Part shown: positions 1-11,074 of the stretch, in pieces
Position numbering within the stretch: position 1 is the first letter of the stretch
Layout: every line of letters starts with the position of its first letter
Assembly: GCA_049599895.1 (NCBI GenBank)
Contig: JBMYPC010000104.1
Span: forward strand, 1 to 11,074
Direction of reading: 5' to 3'
DNA from: Bacteriovoracaceae bacterium
GTDB taxonomy: Bacteria; Bdellovibrionota; Bacteriovoracia; Bacteriovoracales; Bacteriovoracaceae
DNA: 11,074 bases
Translations under genes and position numbers: made by a program
The notes under the pieces: model-generated
The model's database searches: none
The model's input: the letters and a program-made list of their open reading frames with translations, nothing else
Told to the model about the DNA's origin: nothing

Positions 1-187
1 TTTCCCATTTAAATTTTTTAATATATTTTTCCATCTCTTGAAAGATATTTTGAAACTTCCCAAGGACAAAACAAGGATCGTTTCTATAAAAGAAAAGATA
101 ATCTTCCTCAACCTGGCGTAGGAGGACATCTTCAAGGGCCAAATTTTGGAATATATCTCGATAAGGGGATACAAAGTATTTAATCAA
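1..187 (-). CDS. lplA: Lipoate-protein ligase A, N-terminal part (runs off the left edge of the window)
   Basis: Not in the ORF track. Hand translation from TTG at 187 gives MIKYFVSPYRDIFQNLALEDVLLRQVEEDYLFFYRNDPCFVLGKFQNIFQEMEKYIKKFKWE..., matching the LplA N-terminal pattern (NLAxE-x-LL ... LFxYxNxPxxVxGxxQN...E). SD-like TAAGG lies 6 nt upstream, and the start is 15 nt after the mtgA stop. Confidence 0.85.
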   Translation of the reverse strand, partial: MIKYFVSPYRDIFQNLALEDVLLRQVEEDYLFFYRNDPCFVLGKFQNIFQEMEKYIKKFKWE

Positions 188-202
188 TTTAGGCCTTAAA
201 AA

Positions 203-1156
203 CTATTCAATATTAAATTCATTTTGAAAACCAGATTCATCTTCAATTAGGGCATCATCATCATACGTAAGCTCATCATCAACCAACATGTCTCGATCTA
301 TTTTCAAGTTTGCTTCGATAGTTTTGCCATCAATAAATTTTCGAGGCCATTTTTGCTTAAGGCTTGCCGAGCCCCTTTCTCTCTTTTTTTCCCAATTTAA
401 ATGCCGTGACATCTCTCTTTTCAGTTGTTCAGAATTAAGTTTCTTAGCAAGTTTGAGCTTTCCCATAATTTTTGCCACTTGCTCCTTAGCAAAGGGAGTC
501 AGTTCTTTTTGACGAAAAGATTGAGAGTATTTCATGGGATTAGGTAAAAGCATGGCAAGAAAGGCCGCTTCTTTATAAGTTAAATCTCGATAGTTCTTTT
601 TAAAATAATACTGGGAGGCTTTTTGAACACTATAAAGACCATCTCCCAAATGAAGAATATTAAAGTAAACTTCAAGAATCTTTTCTTTAGAAAGCTCACG
701 CTCGAGATGTTTCACAATAATGACTTCTTTAAATTTTCGAAGATAACTTCTTTCATTTGATAAAAAGAGGTTCTTAACAACTTGTTGAGATATCGTTGAT
801 GCCCCTCTTAGTTTTTTGCCCTTAAAAAGGCTCTCTTCAATAGACTTTTTAACTTGAGAAAGATCGACTCCCTCATGCTGAAAGAAGGCCCAATCTTCAC
901 TTAAGACAATCATATCTTTGACAGTTTTTGGATAGTTTCTCAATTCAACCCAATTCTTAGGTCTTTTTTTATTAATATTAAAACGAACTGAGCCCGTGCT
1001 TCCTTTTTTAGTTGAAGGTTTTATCTTCTCAATGTGGACGAAGCCATTTTTGAGGGCCTGAATTTCATTTCGCGGAATAATGGGCCATACATACACAGCA
1101 AGTGAAAAAACAAAAAGAACGCAGAATGTGATGACACCAATAATCGCTTTTTTCAT
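203..1156 (-). CDS. mtgA: Monofunctional biosynthetic peptidoglycan transglycosylase (GT51) with N-terminal membrane anchor and acidic C-terminal extension
   Basis: GT51 motifs present in order: EDWAFFQHEGVD (EDxxFxxHxG, catalytic Glu), RGASTISQQVVKNLFL, RKFKE, KEKILEVYFN. N-terminal hydrophobic helix; no transpeptidase domain. Confidence 0.93.
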   Translation of the reverse strand: MKKAIIGVITFCVLFVFSLAVYVWPIIPRNEIQALKNGFVHIEKIKPSTKKGSTGSVRFNINKKRPKNWVELRNYPKTVKDMIVLSEDWAFFQHEGVDLSQVKKSIEESLFKGKKLRGASTISQQVVKNLFLSNERSYLRKFKEVIIVKHLERELSKEKILEVYFNILHLGDGLYSVQKASQYYFKKNYRDLTYKEAAFLAMLLPNPMKYSQSFRQKELTPFAKEQVAKIMGKLKLAKKLNSEQLKREMSRHLNWEKKRERGSASLKQKWPRKFIDGKTIEANLKIDRDMLVDDELTYDDDALIEDESGFQNEFNIE

Positions 1157-1157
1157 G

Positions 1158-1185
1158 AATGACCTTAATTTCCTTCGAGGTCATT
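1158..1185. promoter_or_regulatory. Perfect inverted repeat AATGACCT-N12-AGGTCATT, candidate operator over the mtgA -10/TSS
   Basis: Arms at 1158-1165 and 1178-1185 are exact reverse complements. One arm overlaps the -10 hexamer and the other the ribosome-binding region. Confidence 0.45.
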
Positions 1186-1211
1186 ATAGCTGTCCCATTA
1201 AAAAATGTCTA
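1183..1211 (-). promoter_or_regulatory. Sigma70-type promoter for mtgA-lplA
   Basis: Minus strand reads TAGACA (1211-1206), 17 bp, TATAAT (1188-1183). Predicted start near 1176, about 20 nt before the mtgA ATG, with SD-like AAGGA/TAAGG in the leader. Confidence 0.7.
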
Positions 1212-1254
1212 AATTGACCAACTAAACAAGAGATAACTCACCAAATATAAAGGA

Positions 1255-1273
1255 CTGTCTAGGAATTAGACAG
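1255..1273. repeat. Perfect inverted repeat CTGTCTA-N5-TAGACAG in the mtgA upstream region
   Basis: Arms at 1255-1261 and 1267-1273. The half-site TGTCTA recurs at 1206-1211, the predicted -35. Confidence 0.4.
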
Positions 1274-1282
1274 ATCGAAGTT

Positions 1283-1312
1283 TTAAGAGAACGCCAACTC
1301 ATGGTCGCTCTT
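1283..1312 (-). terminator. Weak hairpin just downstream of the nuclease gene, possible terminator
   Basis: Minus-strand GAGCG-A-CCA / loop / UGG-CGUUC stem about 10 nt after the stop at 1323. The U-tract is poor. Confidence 0.25.
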
Positions 1313-1322
1313 TGAAAGTTTT

Positions 1323-2342
1323 TTAAAGCTTCTTTAAAGAGCAATTAATTTTATAGCTATTAGTCGTAAACTCATTCATCGGCTTAATTCTAATTTGAAA
1401 ACTCCAATTCTTTGACAAGATATGAAATGAACTCGTACCGATACCGTCTTCAATTAAAAGATCCGAAAAATCATCTTTTAACTTTGCGTACTCAAGAGCG
1501 TAAGCCGAGTCGAATTCGTATTCATTTTGATAGAGACAATTTAATTGAACCACTTCTGGGTTATCAAATCCTTGCAAAATCAAAAGAGTCTCTCGAAATT
1601 GCTCTGCATTTTCAGTAAATAATTGAGAAACAATACTATAAAGCCTTCTCGCTAAGCGCTGATAATGATCACGAATAATTTCTTTTGCTGGCACCTCTTG
1701 ATTTCCAGGCAGACGACTTCCAATGGTTTCATCCCAAGCTTTATCAAAACCTCCTGTAAAGTTGAGTCCATAAAGTTGGTAAAGCTCTAAGGCCATCTGC
1801 TCAAAGCTTTGATCAATAAAAAGATTAAATTCTTCTTGAATGCTTTTGGAAACTGAATGGTCAAAATACTTTTCAATAAAACTTTTTGCTCCAGCACTTT
1901 TAGTATTAATGAAACTATTCTTTCGACACATTTTGAGACTCAAATAAAGACTTTGATCATCTCTATCATTAACAGAAAGAATGATGTCGGCTTCTCCTGA
2001 AGCTGAATTACGGTTTGCTCCAACCTTCTTACCACTGACAACAATGGACTCTGGTTTGGGCCAATTTTTAAATATTTCTTTTTCTTCGAGGCTTTGAACA
2101 AATTTTTTGCTCAGCCCCATAATCTTTGAAACGAGATCTGGATAGTTCTTTAAAATCCAAGACTGATAATGACGCAACTGTTCAACAACATGAGGATGTT
2201 GCGTGTTCTCAAAGGAACTTTGAAGGCCATAGAAACAAGCCACTTCGTAAGCAACTAAATATTCGAAGAGATTTCCCCTCATCTCATTCAACAAACTTTC
2301 GCTTTGCTGAGAGCGGTCAAATTCCCAACCATCTTTTCTCAA
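1323..2342 (-). CDS. PD-(D/E)XK-fold endonuclease, distantly HaeIII restriction-endonuclease-like (orphan, no adjacent methyltransferase)
   Basis: N-terminal helix motif RGNLFEY (E27), GEADIIL (D119) and LSLK (S135-x-K137) form the E...D...SxK variant active site. C-terminal WSFQIRIKP...SYKINCS resembles the HaeIII-family WQFSFRIHN...LKFDIQ segment as recalled from memory. TTG start at 2342 with upstream AAGG; alternative ATG at 2282. The CDS itself is near certain; the family call is by eye. Confidence 0.65.
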   Translation of the reverse strand: MRKDGWEFDRSQQSESLLNEMRGNLFEYLVAYEVACFYGLQSSFENTQHPHVVEQLRHYQSWILKNYPDLVSKIMGLSKKFVQSLEEKEIFKNWPKPESIVVSGKKVGANRNSASGEADIILSVNDRDDQSLYLSLKMCRKNSFINTKSAGAKSFIEKYFDHSVSKSIQEEFNLFIDQSFEQMALELYQLYGLNFTGGFDKAWDETIGSRLPGNQEVPAKEIIRDHYQRLARRLYSIVSQLFTENAEQFRETLLILQGFDNPEVVQLNCLYQNEYEFDSAYALEYAKLKDDFSDLLIEDGIGTSSFHILSKNWSFQIRIKPMNEFTTNSYKINCSLKKL

Positions 2343-2432
2343 ATTCTTCTACCTTTGTCCTACCGATTTTTATTTTCAAATAGTGAACGTGCTTTTAATA
2401 TAAGGCGATATTAATTTAAAACAAAGTTGTTC

Positions 2433-3446
2433 ATGCCTAAGTTTCACGACTTTCCGCAGATTCTGGCAAGTGTTAATGATCTCTCTGAGCCTCAAATTCA
2501 AGACATTCTAAACTTTTCCCTAAAATTAAAGAACCCTCAATTTAGAACCGAAATTCAAAAGCAATATAAAGATGCCGAACTTCTTTCAATCGCTCATCTT
2601 TTTTTTGAGAACTCTACCCGAACCCTTTATTCCTTTTATCAAGCAGCAAAATTATTGGGTCTGAACCCAGTCAATATCCCTGTTGCCAATTCAAGCCTCA
2701 CCAAAGGAGAGGCCATTGATGAAACTCTTATGACATTTGCGGCACAAGGTTTTTGCCTCTCTATCATAAGAACATCAGATGATCATTTCTTTGATAAAGT
2801 AAAAAAACTCCCCATCCCTCTTTTAAATGCTGGAAATGGTCAAACAGAACATCCGACACAGGCCCTTTTAGACCTCTTAACTTTACTCGATATCTCAAAT
2901 GGAAATTTTGAAAGCCTTAAAAATAAAAAAATTGCTTTCGTGGGAGATTTGAAACATTCAAGAGTTGCAAAATCTCATTTTCGTCTTCTGCCGAAGTTTG
3001 CAATGAAAGTTATCGCCATTGCACCTGAAGAATTCATGGTGAGCCAAAACGAAAAAGAAGCTTTTGCAAGCTCAGTTGAATACACTCAAAACTTTCACTC
3101 CCAAATAAAAGATCTCGACTATCTTTATATGCTAAGAGTCCAAAATGAACGACACAATAAAGATGCCGACATCTCATTTAGTTTAGATCAATACATCAAG
3201 TCTTATGGCCTTAAGCACTCCGACTTAAAAGAAAACCCGAATCTCTTCGTTTTTCATCCAGGACCAGCAAATATTGGAGTTGAAATAACTCAAGAAGTTG
3301 CTGATTCAAAGAATTACCAAGCCTATCTTCAAGTTGAAAATTCTACTTTTTTAAGAGCCGCTCTTATTCACTATGCAATCAACAGTTTTGAATATTCTTT
3401 TAACCCCTTTAGAAACCCCATTCTAAAAACAAGGAAGTCAATATGA
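2433..3446 (+). CDS. pyrB: Aspartate carbamoyltransferase catalytic subunit
   Basis: FFENSTRT (carbamoyl-phosphate binding), SSLTKGE, HPTQALLD, VGDLKHSRVAKS, LRVQNER, HPGP. ATG at 2433 preferred; the track starts at TTG 2427. Stop overlaps the next start (ATGA at 3443-3446). Confidence 0.96.
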   Translation: MPKFHDFPQILASVNDLSEPQIQDILNFSLKLKNPQFRTEIQKQYKDAELLSIAHLFFENSTRTLYSFYQAAKLLGLNPVNIPVANSSLTKGEAIDETLMTFAAQGFCLSIIRTSDDHFFDKVKKLPIPLLNAGNGQTEHPTQALLDLLTLLDISNGNFESLKNKKIAFVGDLKHSRVAKSHFRLLPKFAMKVIAIAPEEFMVSQNEKEAFASSVEYTQNFHSQIKDLDYLYMLRVQNERHNKDADISFSLDQYIKSYGLKHSDLKENPNLFVFHPGPANIGVEITQEVADSKNYQAYLQVENSTFLRAALIHYAINSFEYSFNPFRNPILKTRKSI

Positions 3447-6400
3447 ACCCACATTTAAATGAAGCCAAGTTTTATGAAAACCTTAAGCAAACCGAAATTT
3501 ATCTTCATTTCAAAGATGGTTCTATTTTTGAGGGAACAATTAATAAACCCAAAGATCACCCTCTTTTAAAAGAAGGAATATGGGCCGAAGCGGCTTTCAC
3601 AACGGCAATGTCAGGCTACCAAGAAACCATGACCGATCCGTCCTATCTTGGGCAACATCTTATATTTGCCACCAGCCATGTGGGAAATTACGACTCTGAT
3701 CCAAAACAGATGCAATCAGAGAGAGTTCACGCTTGTTCAATCATTGCTTCACATTTTTCTTATAATGAATTTCTCTCCCAAACAGATAAACCTCTCATCA
3801 CTTTAAATGATACAAGAAACCTCATTCAATTTTTAACCTCTACTGATTGCTCGCATATAAGTGTTCTTAAAACAGACAAAACTCCATTAAAAAAAGAAGA
3901 GTTTAATCTTGAGAAGGTGCATTGTAGTGATCTTAAAAGAGTTGGCCAAGAGTCAGCACAGACCCTCATTGGAGGGAAATCCCCCATCGTTCTGATAAAC
4001 TATGGTGTTAAAAAGGCCATCACAAACTATCTTAAAGAACTTGATTTGCCACTTGTCACTCTCCCCCATACGGCAAGCTTTGAAGAAATCACAAACTATA
4101 AGCCTCGAATGGTTTTTCTCTCAAATGGTCCAGGAGATCCAAGAAATTACACTGAGCAAGTTCAGGTCATCAAAAAAATCATTGAAGAAACTGACATCCC
4201 TCTTAGAGGAATATGTTTAGGTCACCAGCTCCTTGGCCTTGCCATGGGCGCAGAAGTCTATAAGCTTCCTTTTGGTCAACGAGGGATTAATCATCCTGTC
4301 TACAACCTTGAGCTCGACAAGGTTCTCATCACCTCACAAAACCATGGTTATTCTGTAACTGAAGAATCATTGAAAAATATCGGTGCTGTTGGAAAAACCC
4401 AAGAAGAAATTCTTGTTACAGAAAAATCATTATTTGATAAATCGGTTGAGGCCATGGCCTCAAAGGACCTAAGAATTAAATCAGTTCAATACCATCCAGA
4501 ATCAAATCCAGGTCCAACAGATGCGTTTCCTTTTTTCAAAGAAGTCAAAGACTACCTTGAATCAAGTCTTGAAAAAAACTGTGTTGTGAATCACAAACTT
4601 CCTTCACAAGAGCTCAACAAAAAAATTCCCTATAAAAAGATTCTACTCATTGGAAGTGGGCCTATCAAAATCGGACAAGCCTCAGAGTTTGACTACTCTG
4701 GAACACAAGCTTGTAAGGCCTTAGGCAGTATTGGAATTGATGTTGTCCTTCTCAATTCCAATCCAGCGACAATTATGACCGATCCCAATATGGCCTATCG
4801 AACATATATTGAACCCATTACCCAAGAAACCATTGTTAAAATCATTCAAAAAGAAAAAGTCGATGCCATTCTCTCCACAATGGGGGGGCAAACGGCGCTC
4901 AACATTTGTATCGAACTTGAAAAGAATGGAATCCTTGAAAGAGAAGGGGTTCAGCTTTTAGGGGCCAAAGTTGATACTATAGAAAGAACTGAAGATAGAG
5001 AGCTCTTTGCCAAAGAGCTGGCCGGTCTTGGTTTTCAAACAGGAAAACGTTTTACAGCGAATGATGAAAATGAGGCCACTCAACTTGCAAAAGCCCAAGT
5101 GGGATACCCTCTTATTATTAGAAGAGACTTTGCTCTAGGGGGTAAAGGAGCGGCTCTCGTTCACAACATTGATGAACTCAAAGACGTTTTAAGTGGAGAT
5201 TTCAAATATCCGATAACTCTTGAAAAAAGTTTACTCGGCTGGAAAGAAGTTGAGCTTGAGATCATGGTCGACAGTGAAAAACAAGGTGTTGTGATCTGTT
5301 CAATTGAAAATGTCGATCCTTGTGGAATCCACACAGGGGACTCAATCACGGTTGCACCAGCCCAGACAATCTCTGATCGCTGTCTGCAGAAGATGCGTGA
5401 TATCTCTTTAACAGTTGCTAAACATATGGGAGTTGTTGCTGGTGGCGCGAACGTTCAGTTTGCCATCAACCCTTTAAATGAAGATGATATTGTCGTTATT
5501 GAAATGAACCCGAGAGTTTCAAGGTCATCAGCACTTGCCTCTAAGGCAACCGGTTACCCGATTGCAAAGATTTCGGCCCTTTTAGCGGTTGGTTACACCC
5601 TTAAAGAAATTCTTAATGACATTACAAAGGTTTCACCAGTGGCCTTCGAGCCGACTCTCGATTATGTTGCGGTAAAAATCCCCATTTTTCCTTTTCAAAA
5701 ATTTCCTTTCTCTTCAAAGACTCTTGGACCTCAGATGCGCTCAGTAGGTGAAGTCCTCGCACTTGGGGGAAGTTTTACGGAAGCCTTTTTAAAAGCTTTA
5801 CGCTCATTAGAAATAGGTCTTGAAATTCCAAGCCTTAAGCAACTTAAAACGACTCCTTTTCATCTCGAGCTCGATTATCTCAAAGAAAGACTTTCTGGAA
5901 GTTTTGAGCTTTCGCTCCTCACGGCCCTTGAGGGACTTCGTAAAGGCTTAAGCTCCTCCGAGATTCATCAGATCTCTGGAATTACAAAATGGTTCGTAGA
6001 CCAAATGGATCATCTCAAAAACTTCGAAGGAAAGATTCAAACGGCATGGAATAGTGATGAGTCTCATAAAAATGAGGATATCCTAAGAGAAGCGAAAAGC
6101 TTGGGTCTGACAGACAAGGCCATCGCCTTTCTCGTCAATAGCTCCCAAGCCCAAATCTTTAAAAACCGAAAAGATCTCGATATCTTTCCAACTTACAAAG
6201 CTGTTGATACCTGTTCAGGGGAATTTCATGCAGTGACCCCCTACTTTTATTCAACATTCAAATCTGTGAATGAATCGATTTCATTTAATAAAACTGATCC
6301 CAATAAAGAGTCTTACGTTATTCTTGGATCAGGACCAAACCGGATCGGACAAGGAATTGAATTTGACTACTCATGTGTAAAAGCGTGTCAAAGACTTTCA

Positions 6401-7936
6401 GAAAAGAAAAAAAATTCGATCATGATCAACTCAAACCCTGAAACGGTATCCACTGATTATGATATTTCAAACCGACTCTACCTTTCACCACTTTACTCTG
6501 AAGATCTTTTCGACATCTTCCTCAATGAAAGACCTAATGGAATTGTGACTTCATTTAGTGGTCAAACAGGTATCAAAGTCAGGCATCACTTAGAAGAAGG
6601 CTTTAGAAAAGAAACCTATGGCCTCCCTTTTCTTGGGGCCAACCTTAAGACACTTGATTTAACGGAAGACCGTGCCCAGTTTGATAGTGTCATCTCAGAG
6701 CTTGACCTTGATAAAACAAAGTCTGTTGAAGTTAGTGGTTACAAAAAACTAGTGGGAGCAATGCTCGACATTGGTATGCCAGTCATTATTAGACCAAGTT
6801 ACGTCATCGGCGGAGAAAGTATGTTCATTTTTTATGGCCATGATGAAATTGAAAAACTTCCTCCTCATTACCAAGAGCAGTTAAAGCAATCAAAAACAAC
6901 ATTTCAAATTGAAAACTATCTTGAAAATGCTATCGAATATGATGTGGACCTTGTTCGGGATAAGTCAGGAAACTGTGTTTTTACAATTTGTGAGCATATC
7001 GAGCACGCAGGGGTACATTCGGGAGACTCAGGAATGGTAACCCCACCAGTCGTTCTTACATCAAATACCTACAAACGCATGAAAAAGATCTCTATTGAAA
7101 TTGCGAATCGCCTTGAAATTGTAGGTCCAATCAACTTTCAATTTGCAGTAAAAGAAGATCGAATCTATTGCATTGAGGCCAACCCAAGAGGTTCGAGAAC
7201 TCTCCCATTTCTCTCTAAAGCCTATCATGTGTCACTTCCTTCTTTTGCCATGGATGCTCTTCTCGGTGAAGAAGTTCCTAACTTTGATCTTGAACAACTA
7301 AATTACTTTGCCGTTAAACAATCAACCTTCCCATTTGATCGTTTTGTTCAAGATAATATTATTCTTGGACCTAAAATGCGATCTACTGGCGAGACTATGG
7401 GTGTAGACTTCGGTAAAGAAGAAGCAATCTTAAAGTCTCTACTTGGCAACTATCCTAAACTGAATAAAGTTGGAAAGATTTTGATCAGCCTCACTGACAA
7501 ACATAAAGGAATCCTAATTCCCTACCTCAAAAGATGTACTCAGCTTGGCTATGAGTTTGTGGCCACCAGTGGAACTTATCAATACATCAAAAAACAAGGA
7601 ATTCCATGTGAGTTAGCACTTAAGATCCAGGAAGATAGTGATGACAATTCACTGAATCAGAACTCACGGTCTATACTTGAAGTCTTAAAAGATGAAAACC
7701 TCATTATGGTTTTCAATACTCCTATGAATCAAGGTGAGTCTAAATCCGATGGTGAATATATTCGAAACAATGCCATTCAGTACGCTGTGCCTTGCTTTAC
7801 GAGACCTGAAAACATTAAGGCCGTACTTGAGTCAATTATTGGTGTGTCTGAAGACATCTCACCACTATCACTACAAGAGCTAGCAAGCAAAGCAGCAAAA
7901 ACTGAAAGTTTTGTTGAAACAAATAGAATTTCTTAA
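3443..7936 (+). CDS. carB: Carbamoyl-phosphate synthetase, fused small (glutaminase, CarA) and large (CarB) subunits in one 1497-aa polypeptide
   Basis: CarA part (about 3443-4560): TTAMSGYQETMTDPSY, LSNGPGDP, GICLGHQ (C258), SQNHGY, QYHPE (H351/E353). CarB part from about 4634: KKILLIGSGPIKIGQASEFDYSG, GIHTGDS, IEMNPRVSRSSALASKATG, second ATP-grasp LGSGPNRIGQGIEFDY...GVHSGDS...IEANPRGSRT, and a C-terminal MGS-like domain (FVATSGT...NTP...DGEYIR). No stop between the two parts. Confidence 0.97.
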   Translation: MNPHLNEAKFYENLKQTEIYLHFKDGSIFEGTINKPKDHPLLKEGIWAEAAFTTAMSGYQETMTDPSYLGQHLIFATSHVGNYDSDPKQMQSERVHACSIIASHFSYNEFLSQTDKPLITLNDTRNLIQFLTSTDCSHISVLKTDKTPLKKEEFNLEKVHCSDLKRVGQESAQTLIGGKSPIVLINYGVKKAITNYLKELDLPLVTLPHTASFEEITNYKPRMVFLSNGPGDPRNYTEQVQVIKKIIEETDIPLRGICLGHQLLGLAMGAEVYKLPFGQRGINHPVYNLELDKVLITSQNHGYSVTEESLKNIGAVGKTQEEILVTEKSLFDKSVEAMASKDLRIKSVQYHPESNPGPTDAFPFFKEVKDYLESSLEKNCVVNHKLPSQELNKKIPYKKILLIGSGPIKIGQASEFDYSGTQACKALGSIGIDVVLLNSNPATIMTDPNMAYRTYIEPITQETIVKIIQKEKVDAILSTMGGQTALNICIELEKNGILEREGVQLLGAKVDTIERTEDRELFAKELAGLGFQTGKRFTANDENEATQLAKAQVGYPLIIRRDFALGGKGAALVHNIDELKDVLSGDFKYPITLEKSLLGWKEVELEIMVDSEKQGVVICSIENVDPCGIHTGDSITVAPAQTISDRCLQKMRDISLTVAKHMGVVAGGANVQFAINPLNEDDIVVIEMNPRVSRSSALASKATGYPIAKISALLAVGYTLKEILNDITKVSPVAFEPTLDYVAVKIPIFPFQKFPFSSKTLGPQMRSVGEVLALGGSFTEAFLKALRSLEIGLEIPSLKQLKTTPFHLELDYLKERLSGSFELSLLTALEGLRKGLSSSEIHQISGITKWFVDQMDHLKNFEGKIQTAWNSDESHKNEDILREAKSLGLTDKAIAFLVNSSQAQIFKNRKDLDIFPTYKAVDTCSGEFHAVTPYFYSTFKSVNESISFNKTDPNKESYVILGSGPNRIGQGIEFDYSCVKACQRLSEKKKNSIMINSNPETVSTDYDISNRLYLSPLYSEDLFDIFLNERPNGIVTSFSGQTGIKVRHHLEEGFRKETYGLPFLGANLKTLDLTEDRAQFDSVISELDLDKTKSVEVSGYKKLVGAMLDIGMPVIIRPSYVIGGESMFIFYGHDEIEKLPPHYQEQLKQSKTTFQIENYLENAIEYDVDLVRDKSGNCVFTICEHIEHAGVHSGDSGMVTPPVVLTSNTYKRMKKISIEIANRLEIVGPINFQFAVKEDRIYCIEANPRGSRTLPFLSKAYHVSLPSFAMDALLGEEVPNFDLEQLNYFAVKQSTFPFDRFVQDNIILGPKMRSTGETMGVDFGKEEAILKSLLGNYPKLNKVGKILISLTDKHKGILIPYLKRCTQLGYEFVATSGTYQYIKKQGIPCELALKIQEDSDDNSLNQNSRSILEVLKDENLIMVFNTPMNQGESKSDGEYIRNNAIQYAVPCFTRPENIKAVLESIIGVSEDISPLSLQELASKAAKTESFVETNRIS

Positions 7937-7956
7937 AAAACTTTAAAGAAGGCCTT

Positions 7957-8670
7957 ATGAGTAAGTTAGATCAAATTATCGTCGCCTTAGATAACATGAC
8001 TGAAAATGAGGCCTTGAGCTTCGTTGAGGAAAATCACCATACTCTTAAGTTTTATAAAGTCGGGATGGAGCTTTTTTATAAATCTGGCCGAGACTTTTTA
8101 AAGAAGCTTAGTGAAAACTATCAAGTCCGAATCTTTCTTGACCTCAAGCTTTACGATATTCCTAATACTGTTTCCAAGGCCATTAGTACTTTTGAGGGTC
8201 TCAATATCGAATTTCTCACCATTCATACATCTGGTGGACGTGAAATGCTTGAAAAAGCACAAATCGCGGCAAGTAAGGCCATACCAAATTGTAAGTTATT
8301 AGGAGTTACGGTCTTAACCTCTTTTTCTCCCGCGAGTTTTAAAGAAACCTTAGGCACAGATTTTGAAGATGGTATTTCAAATCTCTATAAAACTTCTCTT
8401 TCAGCAAATATCCCAGGGATTGTTTGCTCAACTCAAGATATCCAAAAACTTAAGGCCCAAAACCATGGCAATCACCCCCTTTTTGTGTGTCCTGGAATCA
8501 GATTTGAAGATGAAATTCAATCGGGACAAATTTCAGACCAAAAACGAGTTGCTTCGCCTAAAGAAGCATTTAAGATAGGAGCTGATTATCTCGTTATTGG
8601 ACGTTCTCTTACAAGTGTCGAAAGTAATCTACGAACAAAGAGGATTGAGGAAATTTCTCTGATCAAATAG
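7957..8670 (+). CDS. pyrF: Orotidine-5'-phosphate decarboxylase
   Basis: IVALD, YKVG, FLDLKLYDIPNTV (DxKxxD), GVTVLTS, VCPGIR, DQKRV, GADYLVIGR. Starts 20 nt after the CPS stop with SD-like AAGAAGG. Confidence 0.97.
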   Translation: MSKLDQIIVALDNMTENEALSFVEENHHTLKFYKVGMELFYKSGRDFLKKLSENYQVRIFLDLKLYDIPNTVSKAISTFEGLNIEFLTIHTSGGREMLEKAQIAASKAIPNCKLLGVTVLTSFSPASFKETLGTDFEDGISNLYKTSLSANIPGIVCSTQDIQKLKAQNHGNHPLFVCPGIRFEDEIQSGQISDQKRVASPKEAFKIGADYLVIGRSLTSVESNLRTKRIEEISLIK

Positions 8671-8706
8671 TTCCCCTTTTAATCTTCTGGTATTGCTTAA
8701 GGAAAA

Positions 8707-8715
8707 TGGTAAAAT
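8707..8715 (+). promoter_or_regulatory. Extended -10 promoter element (TGnTAAAAT) predicting a leaderless transcript for the OMP gene
   Basis: TG-G-TAAAAT at 8707-8715, then 6 nt, then ATG at 8722. No SD at a usable spacing. Confidence 0.5.
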
Positions 8716-8721
8716 AAACCT

Positions 8722-9627
8722 ATGTTAAGGTTTAAACTCTTAATTCTTTTTATTCTCAATATTTTTTGTCTGCAGACTTTTGCGAAAGGTCCAATTAAGG
8801 CCATTATCACCACACCCAATGCCATTATTTATTCAGACACCGCTCTTAAGTCTCCAATTGGAAAAGTCTCATTTGGAAAAATTATATATGTTGGAAAAAT
8901 TAAGAGGCGCTTTGGTGACATCTCCACAGTTGTTGTCTCTGGCAAGCTCGCCTATATCAAAACCGAAGACTATACAGAATTTGAGACCTGGAATAAGCAA
9001 ACTAAAAATGGTGAAGTTGAAAGGCTGAGGGCCACTGAACACGATATTGATAAAATTCTCATCAAAGACATTGATCGACTAAGCGAGAATAACTATCTCG
9101 TCCTAACAGGGGGAAGATATTCTCTTGGTACAGAATGGGATGTTATCTCTGAAGAATTTGGAGATGGGAGTGGTAATGGTCTCTTTAACGGTAAAGCACT
9201 ATTTGAACACAGACCAGAGATTCACAAATTTAGCTGGGGTGTGGGAATAGGACAATACCTTTCAAATCAAACCTCCCTATCCCTATCAATCACAACCCTA
9301 GAATTAATGCTTTATTATTCTTTTCTCAATGCTTGGGATTTTCTCTCACTTGATTTTCAAGTTGGAACATTAATGACTGCAGCGTTCACCTTAGAAACGA
9401 GTCTTCAAGATCGTTATTCAGGGAGTCTATTTGGCTATATTTATGGCCTTCAGATGCGACTTCTGCCACGATCTAAGATTGGCGCAGTTCTTGGAGTCCA
9501 ATATCAATTAGTGAACATTAGCGGTCTTGATGCAATCGTCATTAATGAATCGACTAACAGACGGGCCACTCTTGAGTCGTTTAGTGGGGCCCAGTTTTTT
9601 ATGGGTTTAAGCTATAAGTTTAATTGA
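8722..9627 (+). CDS. Secreted outer-membrane protein: signal peptide, N-terminal SH3b-like domain, C-terminal small beta-barrel
   Basis: Signal peptide MLRFKLLILFILNIFCLQTFA. SH3b-like segment NAIIYSD...IGKVSFGKIIYV...GKLAYIK. Amphipathic Gly/aromatic beta-strands (FSWGVGIGQY, FGYIYGLQMR, IGAVLGVQYQ) and a terminal beta-signal-like FFMGLSYKF(N). Confidence 0.7.
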   Translation: MLRFKLLILFILNIFCLQTFAKGPIKAIITTPNAIIYSDTALKSPIGKVSFGKIIYVGKIKRRFGDISTVVVSGKLAYIKTEDYTEFETWNKQTKNGEVERLRATEHDIDKILIKDIDRLSENNYLVLTGGRYSLGTEWDVISEEFGDGSGNGLFNGKALFEHRPEIHKFSWGVGIGQYLSNQTSLSLSITTLELMLYYSFLNAWDFLSLDFQVGTLMTAAFTLETSLQDRYSGSLFGYIYGLQMRLLPRSKIGAVLGVQYQLVNISGLDAIVINESTNRRATLESFSGAQFFMGLSYKFN

Positions 9628-10888
9628 TCTCAATGACATCACTTTCTTTATTTTTTGAATTCTTCTCTTTGGCCTTGTTCAAATAATAATCAACTTTCTT
9701 TTTATCACTTTCAAACTGGTCATATTCTCTCAGCTTAACTCTGCGTTTCAACTCTTTAATCCTTTCTTCTTTTTCCTTTCTCTCCTTAAGTTCAATTGAA
9801 TCTGAGAGATTTTCATCTCTTAGAGAAAAAGTTGTTTGATAATGCTTTAAAGAATAGCGATATAAAGGACGTAAAAGATTCGTATTATCCTTTCCTCGTT
9901 CCAGAAACTGAATCATCTCTTTCATAAACTCTTTTCTTTTTTGATCTAAGCTCCATGCGGAATAAAGATACAGCATTCCAACTTGATCAACTTTTTCTCG
10001 AAACTCTAAATTACGAAATTCAGAATAAATCCCTATCGACTTCTCCTTATTTTCAGGTGTGTATGTTAAAGAATTAAGAACCACAAGTCTTAAAGAATCA
10101 GAAAGAGGCTTATTCTTATTGGCCCATAAATAAAACTTATGAATCACACCATTCTCAAAAAAATGAACTTCTTCTTGCCGATAATTAGAATTTAAATGAG
10201 GCCTTTCAATTAAATAAAAGTCTTTATTCGTAACATAGTGATAGTTTAAAGTATCTTCTCCAAAGTACTTATGCCTCACCTTAAGAATATAAAGCTTATA
10301 GACGAGTTCTCGTGCATCCAATTTGGTAATCACATTAAGATAATTGAAAAATGAGGTCTGTTTTGCCTTTTCAACGGTTTTTGGAATATCAATATTTAAT
10401 GTAAAAAGATCTTTCCAAATTAAGTTTAAACCTTTGCTAAGAATATAGTTTTTGAAATACGGAAGCTCAAAAACCCAATCTTTTGCCAAATTGAGATTAA
10501 TCTTTTCTGAACCACCTGGATAGGACTTCAAATAGATCTTTTTATCACTGGCCTGTATCAAAAGACCCGGTCTGTCTTTAAGATCTAAAAACATGAAATG
10601 CGGGGCCAGTCGAAATAAGGGATTTCGTATTGGAGTATCGTAGCTGAAATCTTCAAAGGACATGAGATCCCAATTATCATTATCAGACTCCATATTCGAT
10701 TCATTAAGCTCAAAAGAGCTTCCCTTGTAAAACCTCTCATCAAATTTAGGAATATCGACATAGGAATTTGAAAGCCCCTCAGTAATGGCCAAGTAATACG
10801 AGTGATATGGTAAGACAATAATCCCCAGAGCAAGCAGCCCCGAGAGAACTGCAAAACTGGTAAAAACAAACAAGATCTTTTTTTTCAT
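9620..10888 (-). CDS. Hypothetical membrane-anchored protein with a charged, coiled-coil-like C-terminus
   Basis: 422-aa open frame. MKKK followed by a long hydrophobic helix; Lys/Glu/Arg-rich C-terminus (ELKERKEKEERIKELKRR). No family motif recognised. Confidence 0.75.
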   Translation of the reverse strand: MKKKILFVFTSFAVLSGLLALGIIVLPYHSYYLAITEGLSNSYVDIPKFDERFYKGSSFELNESNMESDNDNWDLMSFEDFSYDTPIRNPLFRLAPHFMFLDLKDRPGLLIQASDKKIYLKSYPGGSEKINLNLAKDWVFELPYFKNYILSKGLNLIWKDLFTLNIDIPKTVEKAKQTSFFNYLNVITKLDARELVYKLYILKVRHKYFGEDTLNYHYVTNKDFYLIERPHLNSNYRQEEVHFFENGVIHKFYLWANKNKPLSDSLRLVVLNSLTYTPENKEKSIGIYSEFRNLEFREKVDQVGMLYLYSAWSLDQKRKEFMKEMIQFLERGKDNTNLLRPLYRYSLKHYQTTFSLRDENLSDSIELKERKEKEERIKELKRRVKLREYDQFESDKKKVDYYLNKAKEKNSKNKESDVIEIN

Positions 10889-10920
10889 AGCTTAAGCTTA
10901 TTATACAGCTCATAAGCTAT
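10887..10920 (-). promoter_or_regulatory. TATAAT -10 element (10905-10900) bracketed by the inverted repeat ATAGCTTA-N18-TAAGCTAT
   Basis: Perfect TATAAT on the minus strand 11 nt before the ATG at 10888, and a possible -35 TGGAAA 18 bp upstream. IR arms at 10887-10894 and 10913-10920; 10-bp palindrome AGCTTAAGCT at 10889-10898. Confidence 0.5.
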
Positions 10921-11035
10921 AGATTTCCAGTGTCTTATGGTCCAAGTTAGAAAACCTGACCCGATCAATCGGTCATAATTATCCATAAACCAAACAAAGA
11001 CTAATATCTTATCCTAAATAGACGATAAGAGTTGT

Positions 11036-11074
11036 ATGAAAACTTTAAAAATACTTTTGACTCTTTTCATTTTT
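11036..11074 (+). CDS. Start of a probable secreted protein (runs off the right edge)
   Basis: ATG at 11036 gives MKTLKILLTLFIF..., a signal-peptide-like start that is open to the window end. AAGAG lies upstream. Only 13 codons are visible. Confidence 0.55.
   Translation, partial: MKTLKILLTLFIF

Follow-up and report, generated by a model that had tools for sequence, protein, structure and literature searches.

GGCC enrichment through a one-way T-to-C substitution bias in Bacteriovoracaceae, and a core restriction-enzyme-like nuclease as candidate MutH analogue

The endonuclease motifs of MutL are DQHAxxE, ACH and CPHGR, and the MutL of Escherichia coli does without them. For Dcm/Vsr, Bhagwat and McClelland reportedly described in 1992 a T-to-C bias that enriches the site of the methylase and depletes its one-off variant, and HaeIII, HinP1I and MspI are cutters of four-base palindromes made up of G and C. 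In the present work we analyzed a window of 11,074 nt from a Bacteriovoracaceae bacterium (assembly GCA_049599895.1, contig JBMYPC010000104.1, positions 1 to 11,074), which is rich in the word GGCC and carries at 1323..2342, on the minus strand, the open reading frame (ORF) of an orphan PD-(D/E)xK-type nuclease of 339 aa, a candidate MutH analogue. The GGCC excess is a one-way T-to-C bias at the outer base and not selection on the site or on the protein: in Bacteriovoracaceae, T-to-C changes become fixed at the final base of GGC[C/T] and, seen from the other strand, A-to-G changes at the first. In cyanobacteria, HIP1 and the alternate HIPs are abundant GC-rich palindromes accompanied by an orphan C5 methylase (Elhai, 2015; PMC4390886). 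Passages of that article place the HIP one-off variants at the first and last base, postulate a MutH analogue directed by 5-methylcytosine (5mC) as a ratchet and describe MutH itself as confined to a gamma-proteobacterial group (PMC4390886). Short palindromes, according to a passage of another article, are usually under-represented (PMC3077040).

The system resembles Dam/MutH in combining an orphan core methylase with an orphan restriction-enzyme-like nuclease, a retained MutS and a MutL devoid of the motifs, but the methylase is a C5-cytosine and not an N6-adenine enzyme, the word is GGCC and not GATC, the nuclease has no PF02976 match and a HinP1I/MspI-like fold, and the one-off bias is strong. 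It shares with Dcm/Vsr a T-to-C bias that enriches a site and depletes the one-off variant; however, the genome (G000) has no Vsr, the 339-aa nuclease is unrelated to Vsr, and the enriched base is apparently not the methylated one. An over-represented palindrome with one-off bias at the outer bases is also what the HIPs display, the methylase here presumably being specific for that palindrome, whereas the nicking enzyme is hypothetical there and here has a candidate gene and a matching loss in MutL; moreover, the word is a 4-mer found every ~350 bases instead of a 5- to 8-mer, and the phylum is another one. Finally, the nuclease has the fold and the catalytic pattern (E..D..SxK) of HaeIII, HinP1I and MspI, but unlike type II restriction-modification enzymes it is core, vertical and usually unlinked, and its presumed site is enriched rather than avoided. 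No description of a GGCC-directed system was found in the open literature, with subscription journals and REBASE outside the scope of the search.

A sequence-only reading of the window had counted by hand about 52 GGCC, against about 12 expected at about 36% G+C. The exact count is 52, spanning 137..10790, and 49 of them lie in ORFs; the expectation had been set slightly low, as base composition at 37.1% G+C gives about 13. Palindromes of the same composition are indeed scarce (CCGG 4, GCGC 7 and also CGCG 4). Under a second-order Markov model GGCC has an observed/expected ratio (O/E) of 1.67 in the window, the top of 256 tetramers, and of 1.43 (8,951 sites) in the 3.27-Mb genome, where it is again the top tetramer. 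The excess persists when synonymous codons are permuted within genes: 49 GGCC stand against 23.1 ± 3.7 in the seven ORFs of the window (maximum 36 in 1000 shuffles) and 8,163 against 4,550 ± 71 in the 2,894 ORFs of the genome (10 shuffles). A two-strand test was used in place of a codon-pair-preserving null, because the latter would by construction absorb a signal located at codon junctions. Among the one-off variants for which depletion was to be looked for, AGCC/GGCT is the lowest tetramer genome-wide (0.73), but GGTC/GACC is undepleted (1.00). The codon pattern described by the sequence-only reading was reproduced as well: before Ala-GCC in plus-strand genes, Lys/Glu codons are G-ending 13 times (positions 2711, 4015, 4450, 4717, 5074, 6118, 7177, 7819, 8010, 8178, 8277, 8454 and 8799) and A-ending 4 times, although A-ending codons dominate overall (249 vs 101; Fisher p 4e-5). 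As to frame, 36 of the 49 ORF sites read xxG|GCC (Ala), in which both outer bases are usually silent. Of the 172 tiles of 11 kb into which the genome can be cut without overlap, the window is the richest in GGCC (the next has 51, and the average is 30.8 with an sd of 8.5), and it therefore overstates a genome-wide effect that is smaller elsewhere; a feature local to the window was thus rejected. An assembly artefact was rejected too, since contigs from two sequencing runs, one of which may be the source of the window itself, equal the window with zero differences over the long pieces listed, and run X2 yielded no substitutions.

At silent sites the bias has a clear anatomy. The last base of G|GC[C/T] is C in 5087/7037 cases (0.72 vs control 0.32) and the first base of NN[G/A]|GCC is G in 2888/4400 (0.66 vs control 0.24), while the inner base shows no response in GG[C/T]|C (0.33 vs controls of 0.37-0.40) and stands at 0.38 vs control 0.34 in xG[G/A]|CC. 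After ATG or TGG, Ala is encoded by GCC 937 times and by GCT 100 times, with the shares of GCA and GCG undiminished. An unbiased scan of contexts ranked GGC_ first on either strand (z 49 and 74), synonymous GGC[C/T] being C-ending in 0.72 vs 0.44 expected in sense and in 0.65 vs 0.26 in antisense. Intergenic DNA is similarly affected (DGGCC 603 and DGGCT 539; control 1565 and 2769), and the bias stays level across genes ranked into ten bins by a codon-based proxy for expression (0.71-0.78). Translation or codon-pair selection was rejected, because the bias is present on both strands and in intergenic DNA and is flat across expression bins; the suggestion of the sequence-only reading that a DNA-level process rather than protein constraint is at work is supported by the same three properties. 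Contigs that look mobile or carry ribosomal-protein genes have a weaker bias (0.42-0.53). GGCC sites follow one another at random, with a mean distance of 353 bases (coefficient of variation 1.02; gaps above 1 kb 5.8% vs 5.9% expected). In two closed chromosomes (G018:C1 and G001:C1) the bias was detected in 20/20 stretches each and climbs from origin to terminus (rho 0.74 and 0.67, 20 stretches each); the nuclease and methyltransferase genes of both lie near the switch of G+C skew.

Substitutions between close strains, a comparison proposed along with the hand count, show slowed loss and raised gain at the outer base of GGC[C/T]. The G008/G019 comparison, over 121 genes, gave 0.23 (0.16-0.33) times the control rate for outer C-to-T and 2.27 (1.52-3.38) times for outer T-to-C, so relative to control contexts outer C is about 4-5 times slower to be lost and about 2.3 times faster to be gained, whereas inner C-to-T reached 1.83 (1.31-2.68) times the control rate. 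Seven other pairs, pooled, gave an outer loss of 0.07 vs 0.39 and a gain of 0.57 vs 0.24. The summed rate of loss and gain is unchanged (0.99 vs 1.02), and together with slow loss and fast gain this suggests that about nine in ten transition mismatches at the outer base are resolved towards GGCC.

The bias is genome-wide and family-wide in Bacteriovoracaceae and absent in the other families sampled. The outer odds ratio has a median of 12 at 80 nuclease loci (above 2 in 78) and of 10 at 29 mutL loci, sampled away from the nuclease (above 2 in 28), vs 0.88 in 20 stretches of other families (above 2 in one); the whole-genome TGGCCC/TGGCTC ratio has a median of 1.62 in 36 family genomes. The relatives found by protein and by locus carry the names Bacteriovoracaceae and Halobacteriovorax. 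One genome, G026, was considered as an exception and then dismissed, as the impression had come from little data and 51 kb gave 126/208 = 0.61 vs 0.33. In a sister family, G051 (0.9 Mb) has GGCC as its most depleted tetramer (O/E 0.27, 15 sites in 140 kb), with 8 of the 15 leftover sites being Trp-Pro pairs that have no silent exit. It carries diverged copies of the methyltransferase and nuclease genes, the latter shortened to 261 aa (loci of this genome: L083-L086 and L171-L173). Since another restriction system is present in G051 too, its depletion is no more than suggestive in singling out GGCC as the relevant word.

No Pfam family scored over cut-off for the nuclease ORF, and no credible family was returned by PHROGs, NCBIfam or PDB sequences. 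Language-model features from the Atlas, however, place it at 0.97 to RE_HaeIII clusters (216/256 shared). The predicted model (pLDDT 92.6) is closest to HinP1I (Z 9.6, root-mean-square deviation 3.6, 206 residues aligned), followed by MspI (Z 8.5, 4.9, 213 aligned) and then by a row at Z 5.8, and its PD-(D/E)xK core is HinP1I/MspI-like; Foldseek against PDB gave zero matches at E 0.001, the best being HinP1I at 2.4e-3. Residues E27, E117, D119 and K137 are invariant in 120/120 nuclease sequences, E27, D119 and K137 being the likely catalytic residues. The gene is present as a single copy in 148/151 genomes of the class, in 35/35 of the family and in 0/165 genomes of other families in the phylum. 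It is vertically inherited and usually unlinked, only 1/80 loci having a C5 methylase no more than 3 kb away. No relatives were found in plasmids or viral contigs, and its matches among viral structures are uncharacterized proteins. The nuclease is an unannotated core gene of the whole class.

Genome G000 has two C5 methylases, one of which adjoins a nuclease-like gene, while the other is an orphan in a housekeeping context (G000:C94:4373-5488). The latter has a match in 151/151 class genomes (144 at E < 1e-79) and, at E 1e-60, in 35/35 family genomes and 0/165 others; its catalytic motifs are intact in 18/18. No relatives were found in viral contigs, and phage methylase matches are distant (at most 37% among the best 20 of 147). 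In G037 and G054 the nuclease and methyltransferase genes stand side by side, and often the two lie within 30 kb of each other, like a split restriction-modification pair; the pairwise distances for nuclease, methyltransferase and MutL covary (rho 0.80-0.89, the pairs being non-independent). The link of the bias to methylation, raised by the sequence-only reading, is suggested by this gene co-occurrence. Close copies of the core methylase also occur in mobile-looking islands, convergent with a 360-aa gene (L163:7115-9315, L164:5909-8102 and L169:7151-9353) that is unrelated to the nuclease and had no usable Pfam or Atlas match. Further copies were seen in a GGCC-poor element (L167) and in G030, where the neighbors are a Vsr gene and a gene resembling an integrase (L360:1306-2953). 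The nuclease-like gene beside the other C5 methylase of G000 is convergent with it (L001:1270-3533), and this genome further holds an ApaLI-like nuclease paired with an amino-methylase that a contig end truncates (L004:802-1881).

All three MutL endonuclease motifs are absent in 33/33 class MutL parsed out of 34 loci, the 34th (G114) having been read by eye, but are present in outgroup G165, whose DQHAAHER aligns to NSEVLFLS of G000. The MutL tail matches PF08676 in 18/35 family genomes (best E 1.3e-7) vs 160/165 others, mostly far more strongly, while MutS is kept in 5/5 and the N-terminal part of MutL in 61/61. MutH (PF02976) is missing in G000 and was found in 1/66 class genomes tested, there beside a Dam-like gene, in a search that matched the E. 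coli control. No Dam-like protein came up in a motif scan of the 2,894 ORFs, which did not extend to PF02086, and GATC has an O/E of 0.96. Vsr (PF03852) is likewise missing in G000 and present in 6/151 class genomes, once beside a mobile methylase copy. Among 20 outgroup MutL tails, many of them picked for low scores, DQHA is present in 13 and missing in 7, and MutH scored over cut-off in 5/5 genomes tested of those 7, so in this phylum a MutL that has lost the motifs is accompanied by a separate nickase. The nuclease of the window is the only candidate for that role found in Bacteriovoracaceae. As an observation apart, two other families of the phylum (G154, G212, G254, G278 and G290; loci L270-L274, MutL tails L231-L234 and L239) combine a motif-less MutL with a solitary MutH-like gene of ~230 aa, possibly representing Dam/MutH-type repair outside gamma-proteobacteria.

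These data can be read as follows. An ancestral GGCC restriction-modification pair would have been domesticated, its C5-methyltransferase, now an orphan, marking GGCC, probably at the inner C, and its nuclease nicking the unmethylated strand under the control of MutS and MutL, as MutH does beside Dam; this nicking would replace the activity that the MutL of the family has lost. At an outer mismatch one strand alone reads GGCC and would be methylatable, so that it may serve as template irrespective of which strand was newly made; losses would be reverted, gains fixed and the GGCC excess would arise as a by-product. At the inner base, deamination of 5mC may offset any gain. The target specificities of both enzymes are presumed in this scheme. 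That the nuclease and methyltransferase pair causes the bias appears quite probable to us, and we lean, by a little, towards independently evolved, 5mC-GGCC-directed mismatch repair with the GGCC excess as its by-product. The full scenario, in which Bacteriovoracaceae invented methyl-directed mismatch repair on their own from a domesticated GGCC restriction-modification pair, with 5mC as strand mark, a HinP1I/HaeIII-like nickase in place of MutH and of the MutL nuclease, and a genome rewritten towards its own signal, we hold to be an even bet.

Several observations weigh against this interpretation. Three genomes that are 91-95% complete (G136, G101 and G114) have no nuclease match and keep the bias (G136 0.77 vs 0.25; G101 0.66 vs 0.23; G114 0.65 vs 0.35), so they would need assembly gaps or recent loss; the assemblies of G136 and G101 are fragmented (100 and 190 contigs). 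In G114, where nuclease, pyrB and MutH are all without match, the outer bias is weaker than usual (0.57 vs 0.35 in another count) and both inner positions run low (0.28, against controls of 0.39-0.47, and 0.32), a pattern that fits 5mC going unrepaired at the inner C. RE_HaeIII (PF09556) matches 0/120 nuclease members and 0/61 genomes over cut-off, and the methyltransferase aligns to M.HaeIII in the conserved motifs only, the target-recognition region excluded. In G000, but not in G018, the bias vanishes when a C precedes the site (0.29-0.36), which the scheme does not account for. The rate estimates assume equilibrium, and the raised inner loss did not recur in the seven pooled pairs (0.52 vs 0.49, n 66). 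All co-occurrence lies within one clade and is one evolutionary event. Moreover, we know of no one-off bias of such strength at GATC in E. coli with Dam/MutH.

The nuclease could instead work like Vsr in very-short-patch repair and nick T:G mismatches within GGCC, possibly on behalf of a methylase of the outer C, with general mismatch repair finding the new strand otherwise or having decayed. A transition-only bias that strongly favors C is just the pattern expected of short-patch repair, and with Vsr missing in 145/151 genomes another enzyme must guard 5mC; but the loss of the MutL motifs in exactly this clade without MutH is then left unexplained, the raised loss in G008/G019 is at the inner and not the outer C, as is the depletion in G114, and a mobile methylase copy adjoins an ordinary Vsr, so we regard this explanation as unlikely. 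The same loss in MutL stays unexplained if the methyltransferase acts alone, binding or methylating the strand of a mismatch that reads GGCC and thereby shielding it, with the nuclease serving restriction or something unrelated. Such a role would suit G136, G101 and G114, which have the methylase and the bias and no nuclease match, as well as the extra methylase copies on mobile elements, as would be expected in a host that cuts sites lacking methylation. However, G051 keeps the methylase yet avoids GGCC, and a single-copy, vertical nuclease that is usually unlinked (1/80 loci) is unlike mobile restriction systems, which makes the methyltransferase acting alone distinctly improbable.

A bias in how mismatches are resolved, wherever they come from, would give reduced loss, raised gain and an unchanged sum, and the main substrate of the same enzymes may accordingly be recombination heteroduplexes, in which a methylated GGCC allele converts an unmethylated GGCT allele, rather than replication errors. 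Such biased gene conversion seems to us very doubtful, as the rise of the bias with distance from the origin points to replication timing, although gene content could confound it. The sequence-only reading had left the choice between repair bias and a binding site; the former fits and the latter does not, repair bias being favored because inner positions and transversion routes are unused. A GGCC that is selected as a protein-binding or chromosome-organizing site would agree with the somewhat higher density near the terminus, but it should have drawn on the silent inner-base and transversion routes, and the gaps are geometric, which leaves site selection scarcely credible.

If the proposed 5mC-GGCC-directed repair is true, the MutH analogue postulated for the cyanobacterial HIPs would have a concrete example, a class-wide core gene without annotation would gain a function and a so far postulated mechanism a testable enzyme. 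Choosing the strand by methylation is regarded as peculiar to Dam/MutH bacteria, and a second origin, out of another restriction system and based on a cytosine mark, would show that this solution evolves repeatedly. A search rule is also suggested, by which a motif-less MutL without MutH points to an unknown nickase. Even without a repair role, the bias drives codon-pair usage and would mislead analyses of selection or codon optimality.

As to the rest of the window, the nuclease has pyrB as its divergent neighbor (2427..3446, plus strand, three GGCC), and a pyrB motif lies within 3 kb of the nuclease in 38/80 related loci; in G101 and G136 (L180 and L181) the pyrimidine operon is arranged otherwise, beside a uvrB-like gene. 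The ORF at 3443..7936 (plus strand), which from motifs in its translation we take to be carA-carB, holds 22 GGCC, 17 of them in the Ala frame, and seems to fuse the small and large subunits of carbamoyl-phosphate synthase in a single frame of 1497 aa. It is followed by pyrF (7957..8670, plus strand), with five GGCC and G-ending Lys/Glu before GCC in 4/4 cases. Both non-coding GGCC noted earlier in spacers are present, one between a transglycosylase gene and lplA (192..195) and the other before pyrF (7951..7954). Among other words, CTAG is rare in the window (O/E 0.34) and ordinary genome-wide (0.95), and TTGAC/GTCAA is the most depleted pentamer of the genome by z (O/E 0.65; 0.69-0.75 in relatives and outgroups), probably through avoidance of the -35 promoter word.

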